Below are positions 1 to 2,772 of a DNA stretch of 12,568 bases, piece by piece (within the stretch, counting starts at the first letter, position 1; each line of letters begins with the position of its first letter). The stretch spans positions 1-12,568 of the forward strand of contig JAZDMQ010000024.1 in NCBI GenBank assembly GCA_043800755.1. The letters are read 5' to 3'. Under the pieces are notes generated by a model. It made no database searches. It was not told the DNA's origin and worked only from the letters and a program-made list of their open reading frames with translations. The DNA comes from a bacterium. Lineage in GTDB: Bacteria > Methylomirabilota > Methylomirabilia > CAVQYV01. The position numbers and the translations under genes were made by a program.

Positions 1-467
1 GAGGCGATTTTTTTCTGGAGGGTTCGGGTGCTCCACCGTTCAATTCGGCACATCTCGGCGTAAAAGTCCCGCTGAAGGGAATCCTGAAGGTAGATGATGG
101 ATAGGAAATGGGTCCAGCTCAATTGTCTCATCAGTGCTGAGACAATCCGTTCATCGGGAAAGGCCTCGGCAAAACGAAGCATGTGCCGCAGGCTTTTTTC
201 GGAGAATCCTCTCCCATAATCCGCCTCCAATTGACGCGACAGTATAGAGACAATTGCCTCCCCATACTCGGCACGCTCTCCTTTAAGAATCTCCTCGTTG
301 ACCCGCCGACCAACCCGCCAGTAGAGCATGGTCAAGGCGGAGTTGACAAAAACGGCGACGCCTTGGCGCGTCTCTTCGATCATCCGGCGAAGGTCTTTCA
401 GAAGCAGAGGCGCAGCTTCCGGCGGAGCCGGTTTCGCTTTCTCCAAATCTCCCTTTCTGACGGTCAT
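1..467 (-). CDS. yhcG: YhcG/DUF1016-family protein (N-terminal domain of a PD-(D/E)XK nuclease-family protein), truncated by the window edge
   Basis: Manual translation from ATG 467, preceded by GGAGGGG, is open to position 1: MTVRKGDLEK...LLKDLRRMIEETRQGVAVFVNSALTMLYWRVGRRVNEEILKGERAEYGEAIVSILSRQLEADYGRGFSEKSLRHMLRFAEAFPDERIVSALMRQLSWTHFLSIIYL...QRDFYAEMCRIERWSTRTLQKKIA. It has the DUF1016 N-terminal motifs VN...LYWxxG, YG, GFS..L..M..F, LSWTH and RxFY....W. Absent from the ORF track because there is no stop codon in the window. Confidence 0.92.
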   Translation of the reverse strand, partial: MTVRKGDLEKAKPAPPEAAPLLLKDLRRMIEETRQGVAVFVNSALTMLYWRVGRRVNEEILKGERAEYGEAIVSILSRQLEADYGRGFSEKSLRHMLRFAEAFPDERIVSALMRQLSWTHFLSIIYLQDSLQRDFYAEMCRIERWSTRTLQKKIA

Positions 468-525
468 GGCGTCCCCTCCAGCAACTTGACCACATTCTCC
501 GCGCTCCGCTCTTCCATGCTTCGCA

Positions 526-560
526 CCCTCACCCCGGCCCTCTCCCAGGGGGAGAGAGAG
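526..560. repeat. Palindromic repeat copy 1 (REP/BoxC-like)
   Basis: ccctcaccccggccctctccc-agg-gggagagagag: pyrimidine tail plus a CTCTCCC/GGGAGAG stem. Confidence 0.85.
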
Positions 561-638
561 TTCTTGCAATGGTTTCTCATCACTCCCTCTCCAACAACTT
601 GACCACATTTTCTGCGATCCGCTCTTCCATGCTACGCA

Positions 639-673
639 CCCTCACCCCGGCCCTCTCCCAGTGGGAGTGGGAG
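639..673. repeat. Palindromic repeat copy 2 (REP/BoxC-like)
   Basis: ccctcaccccggccctctccc-agt-gggagtgggag. Confidence 0.85.
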
Positions 674-690
674 TTTTCGATTAGCTTGGT

Positions 691-2772
691 TCATATGCCC
701 GCCTCCAGTAACAGGCTGATATTTTCGGCAATGCGTTGCTCTAACTCGCGGGCCTCGGCGTTGAGGGTTTCCAGCTCCTCGTTCTGCTCCTCCAGCCGCT
801 CTTTGAAGTCAAAGTCCTCCTCGGCGCGGGCGGCCACGCCCACATAGCGGCCGGGGTTGAGGCTCCAGCCCTGGGCTTCGATCTCGCTTAGAGTGGCCAC
901 TTTGCACAAGCCCGGTACGTCCACGTACCGGGCACCCTCACCCCTGGCCCCTTTCCCAGAGGTAGAGGGGAGGAAGCCGTATTCGGCCAGAAGCTTGGCG
1001 CTGCCATGCGCATCTTCCGGCGTCTCGCCGCGATAGAGCCGGGCGATGTTGGCCAGGAACTCGATCTGCGCCGGGGTCCAGTCGCGGTGGGCGCGGTCTA
1101 ATTGCCTGAAAATCTGGCGCCCGTCGATGAACAGAACAGTATCTCTGTACCGAGCGCCTTCCGTTCCGCAGTCGACCCGATCTTCAGGCAAACCCTCACC
1201 CCTGGCCCCTCTCCCACAGGGAGAGGGGGTTTCCGCACCCTGAGAGGTAGAGGGGAGGTTGGCCATGATCGTTTGGAGAACAGATTCGACGGAGTCGAAG
1301 ACTTGATGATTTGGAAAACGAAGAACACGATAACCCGAGGTGCTGAGATACGCATCGCGTTTCGCGTCCTGTTCACGTCGGCTGGCGTCATCGTGCACAC
1401 CGCCACCCAGTTCAACGACCAAGCCGTACTCCGGGCAGAAGAAATCAACGATGTAATCCCCTATCTGATGTTGGCGACGGAACCTGAGTCCAGCCAGTTT
1501 CCGGTCACGCAGCAAATTCCACAAGAGATCCTCGGCGGGGGTCTGATTCTTCCGGAGCTCGCGGGCCTCTTCCTTTAACCCCTGGAAGATGTAACCTCCT
1601 TTCCCGCCGGGAGAGGACTGAGGTGAGGGTGGACAAGGCGGAAGCGACGCTTTCGCCTTGTCCATGAACCATAGAGTGCAAGGCAAGATTACCGTATAGA
1701 AGAAGTTGGAGCCGACAGCAATCATCACATCAACTGCACTGCTCTGGATCAACTTCTGCCGGATCTCCAGCTCACTGGCCCGGGCATCGCTGGCAGAGTT
1801 AGCCATGACGAAGCCAGCCCGGCCCGTAGGACTCAGCGCGCTGTAGAAGACCTGAATCCAGAGATAGTTAGCATTATCCGCCTTGGGGAGGCCCAAGGGG
1901 AAGCGAGGGTCATCCTTGATCCGCTCTTTGTCCACCCGATCCACATTGAACGGAGGATTGGCCATGACGAAGTCGAATTTGCCCACGCTGCGGTGGATGT
2001 CCTCATAGTAGCTGTTTCCTTGGCGGATGTCGCCGGAGAGGCCATGAACAGCCAGGTTCATCTTGCACAGGCGGACGGTCTCCAGGGTTTTCTCCTGGCC
2101 ATAGACCATGATCTCGGCGCTCGGATTTCTCTTGTGATTCTCCACGAAGCGGGCGCTCTGGACAAACATGCCGCCTGATCCGCAGGCAGGGTCGAAGATC
2201 CGCCCATGGTAGGGCTCGATCACCTCGACGATGAGCTTCACGATGGAGGTGGGGGTGAAGAACTCCCCGCCCTTTTGCCCCTCACTCATCGCGAACTTGC
2301 CCAGGAAGTACTCATAGATCTTACCAAAGGCATCGCCCTCGATGTCCATGGGCACGGCAGCGAAGGTCTTGAGCAGGGTGAAGAGGGTGGCGTTGTCCAG
2401 GCGGGAATAGGTCTTGGGCAGGACATCTTTCAAATCTTCGTTTTCCGCCTCAATGGCCTTCATCGCCTCGTTGATGGCCTTGGCAACGTCAGCTCCCTCC
2501 GGCAAATTGAGCAGGGTGGAGAAGCGGGCCTGCGGCGGCAGGTACATGACTCCCCGGGCCTGATAGTCGTATTTCCCGACGCTGCGCCGACCGCTCCCTT
2601 GGCCCTGCAATTCCTGCTCCACCTGCGAGAACTTGTGGTCGGCATAGCGTAGAAAGATCAGGCCGAGGACCGGCACCGAGTATTCCGAGGACTTGAGCTT
2701 GGAATTGGCCCGCAGCTCATCCGCCGCGTCCCAGAGTCTCTTTTCGATCTCATTGTTATTCGCAACGGCCAT
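691..2772 (-). CDS. hsdM: Type I restriction-modification N6-adenine methyltransferase subunit M, carrying an in-frame DUF559-like insertion
   Basis: N-terminal [12 protein letters not shown]...[17 protein letters not shown], motif [10 protein letters not shown], motif IV NPPF and C-terminal [10 protein letters not shown]. Start placed at ATG 2772 (GAGG upstream) rather than TTG 2814. Confidence 0.96.
935..973. repeat. Palindromic repeat copy 3, in frame inside the hsdM C-terminal region (encodes [13 protein letters not shown])
   Basis: ccctcacccctggcccctttccc-aga-ggtagaggggagg, with the same tail and stem design as the other copies. Confidence 0.85.
1193..1229. repeat. Palindromic repeat copy 4 (encodes [12 protein letters not shown])
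   Basis: ccctcacccctggcccctctccc-aca-gggagaggggg, with a perfect CCCCTCTCCC/GGGAGAGGGG stem. Confidence 0.9.
1235..1258. repeat. Partial repeat copy 5 (internally deleted relative of copy 3)
   Basis: gcaccct-g-agaggtagaggggagg; 1243-1258 is identical to 958-973 (16 bp). Confidence 0.65.
1598..1629. repeat. Palindromic repeat copy 6, opposite orientation (encodes [11 protein letters not shown])
   Basis: cctttccc-gcc-gggagagg-actgaggtgaggg; its reverse complement ccctcacctcagtcctctccc... matches the family. Confidence 0.8.

Follow-up and report, generated by a model that had tools for sequence, protein, structure and literature searches.

The hsdM gene of the window carries a nuclease-bearing insertion

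We analyzed a 12,568-nucleotide stretch of bacterial DNA, referred to here as the window (contig JAZDMQ010000024.1 of assembly GCA_043800755.1, phylum Methylomirabilota). It encodes an HsdM protein, the methylase subunit of a type I restriction–modification (R-M) system, whose gene is interrupted in frame by copies of a short repeat and by a Vsr-like nuclease domain of the DUF559 family. The repeat unit, of approximately 40 nt, consists of a 9-bp GC hairpin followed by ...GGGGTGAGGG(T), an end that we term the tail and that is also written ...GGGGTGAGGGT; the window holds five full copies. In R-M genes, this small mobile element is bordered at its tail by an inverted copy of host sequence, and the present analysis concerns that junction. 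The features that make up the locus are as follows.

691–2772, minus strand: hsdM, type I R-M methylase subunit (open reading frame listed as 691–2814; likely ATG at 2772)
1161–1646, minus strand: complete insertion at the main hsdM site, in frame and 486 nt (162 codons) long, delimited by alignment to insert-free HsdMs
1255–1578, minus strand: DUF559 (Vsr-like nuclease) domain, residues 413–520 of the fusion protein
1592–1632, plus strand: repeat copy 6, with its tail ...GGTGAGGGT ending near 1631 (nhmmer 2.1e-09); upstream end of the DUF559 element in the hsdM sense
1189–1232, minus strand: repeat copy 4, with its tail at 1192 (nhmmer 8.6e-10); downstream end of the DUF559 element
1243–1258: partial repeat copy 5
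934–972, minus strand: repeat copy 3, which stands alone as a 39-nt insertion in frame at another hsdM site, downstream of the main site
635–677: repeat copy 2, in a tandem unit after the hsdM stop
522–564: repeat copy 1, in a tandem unit after the hsdM stop

Translation of the minus-strand hsdM frame gives a protein of 707 residues that is free of stops through all insertions. Its Pfam matches include HsdM_N (4.2e-20) and N6_Mtase (1.4e-75), the latter in two stretches split by the insert, and the presence of both families within one protein identifies it as a type I R-M methylase subunit. The DUF559 match (PF04480; residues 413–520) has an E-value of 6.4e-35 and scores 119.8 bits against a curated cut-off of 20.6. 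Within the main insertion, the order is left arm, inverted repeat end, DUF559 domain, repeat end, and right arm. Copies 4 and 6 are mutually inverted, with their tails pointing outward around DUF559, and are 79 to 80% identical over 20 to 24 nt, as terminal inverted repeats are. The direct target-site duplications of miniature inverted-repeat transposable elements (MITEs) and insertion sequences were not found, the flanks bearing inverted, not direct, copies of host sequence. The long form of the element is thus two inverted units, tails outward, around a Vsr-like DUF559 domain; the nuclease is missing from short forms. Where these forms sit in frame in type I hsdM and hsdR genes, as they do in the window and many other bacteria, they are translated through as Pro/Gly-rich linkers plus the nuclease domain.

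No Hint or protein-splicing domain is among the seven Pfam matches of the window protein, so that these matches give no sign of an intein. Between the repeat ends, Pfam detected no transposase family, either in the window or in the related loci described later; DUF559 stands there alone. Rfam covariance models returned just two chance matches in the region, both far under their gathering scores. Removal of the insert by RNA splicing or its bypass by the ribosome was considered and ruled out, since the reading frame continues unbroken across the insert both in the window and in those related loci that were examined, with 70 of 81 tail clusters lying within open frames of at least 200 residues.

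Fold-backs at the tails in the window

A first-pass annotation of the window, made from the sequence alone, had proposed that every full repeat copy is followed by a fold-back and that, inside hsdM, one arm of it is host coding sequence. Here, the significance of each fold-back was assessed by single-stranded DNA folding against 200 shuffles. The arms concerned are the following.

1630–1646: proximal (new) arm of the left junction, translated as S-L-P-P-C-P and missing from 50 insert-free HsdMs
1648–1664: host (distal) arm of the left junction, HsdM codons M-D-K-A-K-A
1161–1191: new arm at the right junction, which repeats 1102–1139 in inverted orientation with gaps (z = −4.58)
1102–1139: host arm of the right junction, HsdM codons (Q)IFRQ..VLF in the 707-residue frame
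910–933: palindrome after copy 3, with proximal arm 923–933 (A-R-Y-V) and host arm 910–920 (D-V-P-G)

At the left junction, which abuts copy 6, the 17-nt arms (1630–1646/1648–1664) are 94% complementary, and the fold-back at 1630–1664 has an energy of −16.7 kcal/mol (z = −7.66). At the right junction, which abuts copy 4, the arms are 88% complementary over 16 nt (1102–1117/1176–1191), and the fold-back across 1102–1191 reaches −20.4 kcal/mol (z = −4.58). The solo copy 3 is followed by perfect 11-nt arms (910–920/923–933; −12.0 kcal/mol, z = −5.09). In each of these three cases, 0 of 200 shuffles folded as well, and the three large fold-backs stand as first annotated, with one reservation. Insert-free HsdMs read K-Y-V-D-V-P-G at the copy 3 site, so both halves of the inner TACGT/ACGTA pairing may belong to the host, and by this comparison it is only for the outer 6 bp, GCCCGG/CCGGGC, that one new and one host arm can be claimed with certainty.

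The mini-hairpins TGC-GAA-GCA and TGC-GTA-GCA after copies 1 and 2, to which the annotation had also given weight, are chance (z = +0.18 and +0.11; 104 and 100 of 200 shuffles at least as good). A genuine fold-back is therefore present at three of the five full copies in the window rather than at every copy.

Fold-backs are a property of in-frame insertions in R-M genes

Across samples, tails were scored by the best ungapped inverted repeat whose near arm starts at most 3 nt from the tail. Set B comprises the window and 80 related loci from metagenomes that encode relatives of the window insert, and it yields 81 de-duplicated tail flanks. About 36 of its loci are HsdM::DUF559 fusions; the others have DUF559 in frame elsewhere in HsdM or inside HsdR, with a few distant free-standing DUF559 genes. 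A score of at least 8 was obtained at 38 of 81 tails (47%), at 1 of 88 heads, and at 24 of 1925 random positions of the same loci (1.2%); for a score of at least 10, the corresponding counts are 22/81, 0/88, and 3/1925. Positive tails are confined to those spanned by open frames of at least 200 codons (38/70, against 0/11 outside such frames). Within R-M loci, fold-backs thus occur only at in-gene insertions.

These counts also bear on the idea that the palindromes are chance products of GC-rich coding DNA, or assembly artefacts. GC-rich DNA does fold easily, and the two mini-hairpins are indeed chance, but no shuffle reached any of the three window stems, a score of 8 is attained at 47% of tails and at 1.2% of random positions, and the same pattern is seen, in an intact reading frame, across many independent assemblies. 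We regard this explanation as refuted.

The repeat at large behaves differently. Set A samples it across all phyla (124 loci and 130 copies, among the matches listed, a scope that holds for every count from this set). With a looser repeat pattern, scores of at least 8 were found at 5 of 181 tails and 1 of 164 heads, which is no enrichment, and with a strict pattern, 79 clean tail flanks were indistinguishable from 77 head flanks and from shuffles (Mann–Whitney p = 0.3–0.76). DUF559 lies within the available stretch in 3 of the 124 loci. Set C, drawn from 28 genomes in the window's phylum at one locus per genome, gave a score of at least 8 at 1 of 51 tails, that one being again an HsdM::DUF559 fusion; most of the "long open frames" in this set are spurious antisense frames or gene ends. 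On inspection, the loci of sets A and C look mostly intergenic. The tail-side enrichment over heads that the first-pass annotation had anticipated genome-wide is accordingly found at R-M loci and not in the broad samples.

The genome of the window has seven tails in total (nhmmer), five in the window and two on another contig, C68. At positions 1–480 of that contig, an hsdR gene running in from the contig edge contains a tail–hairpin–tail insert in frame, and both tails carry inverted copies of the adjacent hsdR codons. The same hsdR is empty at the site where four of the related loci (L162, L168, L169, and L170) carry DUF559.

The tail-proximal arm is inserted DNA

The protein search listed 120 HsdM relatives from 7999 scored candidates, which with the window protein make 121. 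At the main site, these comprise 33 DUF559 fusions, 38 remnants that lack DUF559 (18–49 residues), and 50 minimal loops (11–13 residues). The minimal loop has nothing that corresponds to the residues of the proximal arms (S-L-P-P-C-P at one end, L-P-E-D... at the other), and the host arms (D-K-A-K-A; V-L-F-I-D-A-R..I-F-R-Q) are homologous to residues of the empty proteins. Because the minimal loop is too small for the proximal arms and leaves their residues unmatched, the proximal arms are inserted DNA. At the DNA level, a pair of alleles at an N-terminal hsdM site gives the same picture: the empty allele L147 lacks the arm that the filled allele L148 has, and the L148 insert takes the place of approximately 24 nt present in L147. 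The earlier proposal of an inverted rather than direct target duplication is borne out by this comparison of filled and empty sites, the tail-proximal arm being extra DNA that mirrors the adjacent host coding sequence.

It could be argued that the element inserts beside host hairpins that existed beforehand and that nothing is duplicated. Some inner stems are in fact host on both sides, such as Y-V-D-V (TACGT..ACGTA) at copy 3 and R-A-D-T (CGTG..CACG) at the main site. The loop of 50 of the 121 HsdMs, however, offers no space for a proximal arm, the empty L147 is without the arm of L148, and the outer residues LPPCP, EQR, LPED, and QPSR are unmatched in empty proteins. This explanation is already largely refuted, and we give it very little credence.

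The 38 remnant alleles (P0017, P0026, P0046, and others) keep both arms and have neither DUF559 nor the hairpins. One of them reads ...L-P-P-C-P-S-G-E-G-Q-R-V-R-A-S-D-T. From their sequences, the remnants look like products of deletion between the inverted ends.

The arm follows the codons of its own host

Directly past the tail at the downstream junction of the main site in hsdM, the sequence is an inverted copy of host codons that lie 4 to 70 nt further on. The match extends to synonymous codons: CCT pairs with AGG in the window, CCG with CGG in L127, and ACG with CGT in L129 (15/15 overall), L127 and L129 carrying the right-junction arm of the window matched to their own codons. In L141, the arm GAACAAAAC faces GTTTTGTTC, and in L152 the arm AAACAGAAC faces GTTCTGTTT; in L147, L154, and L158, still other host codons are matched perfectly, by arms of 9, 11, and 12 nt. 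By lineage, the partner codons are V-L-F, D-A-R-H, H-I-F-R-Q, or K-G-N-V, and this variation speaks for several independent origins at the same site and against a single conserved structure. At the upstream junction, an L-P-P-C-P arm is common to many fusions and missing or decayed in others; it has undergone one compensated change (L140, GCG to GGG with CGC to CCC) and one uncompensated change (L148).

Among 40 junction stems, the ungapped arms measure 8 to 18 nt and the loops 2 to 72 nt, several of the "large loops" being longer palindromes with a bulge. The new DNA past the tail amounts to about 6 to 25 nt, and the palindromes are centered near the boundary between host and insert. The stems contain 24 mismatches, of which 11 are G.T, 5 are A.C, and 8 are others. 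The strand bias of the wobble pairs is not significant, and the G-T-compatible mismatches cannot serve as the strand argument for which they had first been cited. Decay of arms is apparent in the gaps and 88% complementarity of the right arm of the window, in L147, which has lost most of a left arm kept by L148, and in the left arms of L130–135, also decayed or deleted. The arm, then, exists, is specific to the tail, is missing from empty alleles, and follows host codons, and its templated, insertion-linked origin is well supported.

Two readings would give the arm a function. In the first, the arm is a guide, a tail-side segment complementary to a conserved host motif, by which the element finds or primes the same site in new alleles through base pairing, loosely like the guide segments at IS200/IS605 ends or the exon-binding sites of introns. 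Arms do travel with the element, those of LPPCP and LPEN type being common to distant HsdM backgrounds, and the distal arms often lie on highly conserved motifs (VLFIDAR, the DEAH box, AQGWS). Such a guide would nevertheless be inverted and would abut its own target, it would leave unexplained both the match to each host's synonymous codons and the use of differing codons at one site, arm sequence is not conserved across sites, and the region matches no RNA family in Rfam. We consider a guide improbable. The related suggestion of target choice by a pre-existing variable arm, raised when the window was first annotated, fails on the same facts of host-specific synonymous codons and of host codons that differ by lineage.

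The main rival to the reading that we favor is that the junction hairpins are functional and are kept by selection or by arm-to-arm correction, for instance as a substrate, in cruciform or single-stranded form, that a structure-specific nuclease would recognize in the next mobilization or in homing, DUF559 being a candidate. On this reading the arms are maintained, whatever their origin. The stems are very stable, they are linked to tails and not to heads (38/81 against 1/88), they persist across HsdMs that are just about 60% identical, and paired differences keep the pairing intact (L141 against L152; the window, L127, and L129; the L140 left arm). Against maintenance stand the placement of the distal arm on differing codons by lineage (VLF, DARH, HIFRQ, KGNV), the uncompensated mismatches in the L148 left arm, the decayed or deleted arms just described, and wobble-type mismatches without strand bias (11 versus 5). 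Moreover, alleles without DUF559 still hold the arms, and apparently intergenic copies in the broad samples do without them. On balance, maintained hairpins seem unlikely, if clearly less so than a guide.

Mobility of the element and inheritance of the arms

In a tree built from the host portions of all 121 proteins, fusion state changes at least eight times, with at least five changes forced by well-supported branches, and one well-supported clade of four members (P0006, P0007, P0049, and P0087) contains both fusions and empty proteins. Presence or absence at the same conserved site among close alleles is as expected of a homing endonuclease gene. So is an element history that differs from that of its host: identities of host and DUF559 parts correlate with r = 0.54, and they diverge in both directions, P0008 and P0111 being 64% identical in the host part and 82% in DUF559, and P0004 and P0022 being 75% and 50% identical, respectively.

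The L147/L148 pair indicates how the arms may be transmitted. The two alleles are identical at 54 of 57 positions left of the insert, at 31 of 50 positions in the 50 nt from the tail to the end of the distal arm, and at 71 of 75 positions beyond. This diverged 50-nt tract after the L148 tail, which encodes almost the same peptide, looks like donor-allele DNA brought in with the element, pointing to co-conversion. A co-converted donor tract would explain both the joint inheritance of complementary arms and the occurrence of the same arm type in distant HsdM backgrounds. We infer that the arms are inherited with the element and are probably not remade at each transfer.

In contigs from sequencing runs, neither clean excision nor inversion of the DUF559 insert was seen; joints 1089→1845 and 1040→2039 were not used, as their sides are 25 and 20 nt long (below 30 nt) with a likeness below 95%, and such joints often stem from other organisms or repeats. 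DUF559 proteins are enriched among predicted programmed inversions, according to a table in Milman et al. 2023 (PMC9881135). An in silico flip between the two ends (window 1192–1631) truncated hsdM at 185 of 185 breakpoints tried, and an inverted form of the DUF559 segment was not seen among the run contigs compared. An on/off inversion switch is conceivable.

A model for the origin of the junction palindrome

Our best reading is that the palindrome is a junctional inverted duplication, produced by snap-back or strand-switch synthesis when the tail was joined to a broken host end, with the arms inherited thereafter; we put its probability at roughly 0.5. In this model, the broken host end or the 3′ tail of the element would fold back, or switch strand, at a short inverted repeat, would be extended by a few to a few dozen bases, and would then be joined to the tail, in a process resembling synthesis-dependent microhomology-mediated end joining. 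The element would subsequently move between hsdM alleles by homologous recombination with co-conversion, the arms traveling along, and the arms would slowly decay or suffer partial deletion. The layout of tail, inverted host copy, loop, and host, its restriction to tails, and the loss of host bases in at least one case are what limited synthesis after a fold-back or strand switch would leave. The specific snap-back chemistry is our inference; template switching or a hairpin intermediate, both named in the first-pass annotation, remains the simplest source of the arm.

Several points weigh against this model. The mechanism is deduced from the structure of existing junctions. Arms are found at in-gene copies in R-M loci and not at the repeat at large, and snap-back as a plain mode of insertion predicts arms at intergenic copies too. 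In several stems, the center measures 1 to 3 nt, which leaves too little room for a primer that snaps back within one molecule; for these, a hairpin-capped end or a strand switch at the end of a duplex is the better fit. The double compensatory differences (L141/L152 and the L140 left arm) could reflect selection or arm-to-arm correction. Solo copies have a one-sided arm, which leaves a model of symmetric break repair incomplete. Finally, the DUF559 motif of the window is E-L-G-G, and 30 of 32 related fusions have E-x-D-G (E-[LI]-D-G), an acidic motif that we take to be catalytic in DUF559; given this alteration, the window copy may be inactive.

More speculatively, the junctions may belong to a new class of mobile element, with ends made of a hairpin and a GGTGAGGG tail and, as its sole protein, an in-frame Vsr-like DUF559 nicking nuclease. 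Such an element would colonize type I R-M genes without inactivating them, its integration through hairpin or strand-switch intermediates would write the inverted target duplication, and the palindrome would be the substrate of the nuclease in the next round of homing. We offer this wider proposal as tentative, holding it to be appreciably less likely than the junctional duplication itself.

Relation to known systems

The junctions recall P nucleotides, which form when hairpins are opened at V(D)J or hAT-type breaks, usually measure 1 to 4 nt, and are found at excision footprints. Both are palindromic extensions of flanking DNA centered on a break, but the arms described here measure 6 to 25 nt or more, many have loops of 12 to 72 nt, and they occur at filled sites. 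Like an intein, the element is a selfish nuclease-bearing insert in frame within a conserved host protein; unlike an intein, it has no Hint or splicing domain, and the insert appears to stay in the mature protein.

MITEs are flanked by direct target duplications, and repeats can be fused in frame to genes (Delihas 2011, PMC3184786). Rickettsia palindromic elements, BOX, and others, and MITEs in general, resemble the present element in being short, hairpin-forming, and multi-copy, with inverted ends and a pair of autonomous and non-autonomous forms, and they too can lie in frame in protein genes and be translated. MITEs have a direct duplication where this element has an inverted host copy at the tail only. 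The cargo differs as well, being a Vsr-like nuclease domain without its own start or stop instead of a transposase, and the sampled in-gene copies lie in type I R-M genes.

Dassa et al. 2009 (PMC2677866) described Vsr-like putative homing endonucleases whose genes stand free within fractured genes and introns. They are like the DUF559 element in occupying set points of conserved genes, in their patchy distribution and inferred mobility, and in having hairpins adjoining the nuclease open reading frame. Those reading frames are free-standing, however, and split their host gene, usually together with split inteins, or lie in introns, whereas the present domain is internal and in frame with no intein or intron; DUF559 has 0 occurrences in that paper, and junction palindromes go unmentioned.

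The closest mechanistic parallel is the snap-back pathway of synthesis-dependent microhomology-mediated end joining, in which a 3′ end folds on a short inverted repeat and primes limited synthesis, so that a templated insertion in inverted orientation remains next to the break (Khodaverdian et al. 2017, PMC5728401). The pathway often leaves a small deletion, to which the approximately 24 nt of L147 replaced by the L148 insert may be compared. The scars described there are sporadic and eukaryotic; those described here are systematic, abut one defined element end, and are inherited.

In line with the first-pass annotation, which knew of no such description, our literature searches, outside which subscription-only papers lie, returned no account of DUF559-linked repeats or of in-frame insertions of this kind; the full-text hits for DUF559 were judged largely by titles and the openings of abstracts. 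The searches likewise found nothing relevant on inverted or palindromic target duplication in bacteria, or on palindromic elements inserted in frame within genes of R-M systems.

Transposable elements are classically recognized and classified by the direct target-site duplications that they leave. Inverted duplications left as a rule by one family imply that it integrates by another chemistry, either copy-back synthesis or hairpin ends, and pipelines that seek direct repeats would miss such a family. A large share of the HsdM and HsdR genes of environmental bacteria hold a nuclease domain or its remnants; among the HsdMs examined here, 71 of 121 carry one or the other in translated form, which is relevant to the question of how genes for defense put up with selfish inserts or perhaps make use of them. 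For DUF559, a very common domain whose function is unknown, a role that can be tested emerges, and the loci supply cases from nature in which a long domain has been placed in frame within a defined loop of a type I R-M subunit.

Distribution of the repeat and other observations

Within the window's phylum, 107 of 251 genomes contain the repeat, among them two unpublished ones with a single match apiece; a reversed control pattern gave 0. The 20-nt motif of hairpin plus tail was also found in Pseudomonas, Xanthomonas, Acinetobacter, Chloroflexota, Planctomycetes, Myxococcota, cyanobacteria, and others, a marked likeness across phyla for a non-coding sequence. In set A, 41 of 130 copies, among the matches listed, have an inverted partner, tail to tail, within 150 nt, and 6 have a direct one; tail-to-tail pairing is the opposite of the tails-outward layout around DUF559. 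The spacer ends of these pairs show weak complementarity, with spacer limits off by 1 to 2 nt, and were not used as a test.

R-M subunits seem to accumulate repeat insertions. Further in-frame insertions were observed at other loops of HsdM or HsdR in P0014, P0022, L136, L139, L140, L144, L148, L152, L162, L168, and L169, some of them being tandem partial copies.

This contig has no hsdS. The gene after hsdM (window 3–467) is truncated by the contig end and matches the DUF1016 N-terminal domain (9.1e-44). One further feature of the locus is the following.

464–677, minus strand: two tandem 113-nt units past the hsdM stop, 87% identical, each consisting of a repeat copy and a relic HsdM C-terminus

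The C-terminal helix of HsdM is consequently present three times, in direct order, across window positions 464–745: the functional copy at 691–745 and relics within 577–634 and 464–521. Both relics come after a repeat copy, and the last, at 464–521, runs into the beginning of the next gene. As the helix copies are in direct order, the repeats at 464–745 accompany a direct, not an inverted, host duplication. Contigs of two sequencing runs (X1 and X2) join position 516 to 746 with two letters between, which is an allele without both repeat units; in this allele, HsdM ends in the last relic.

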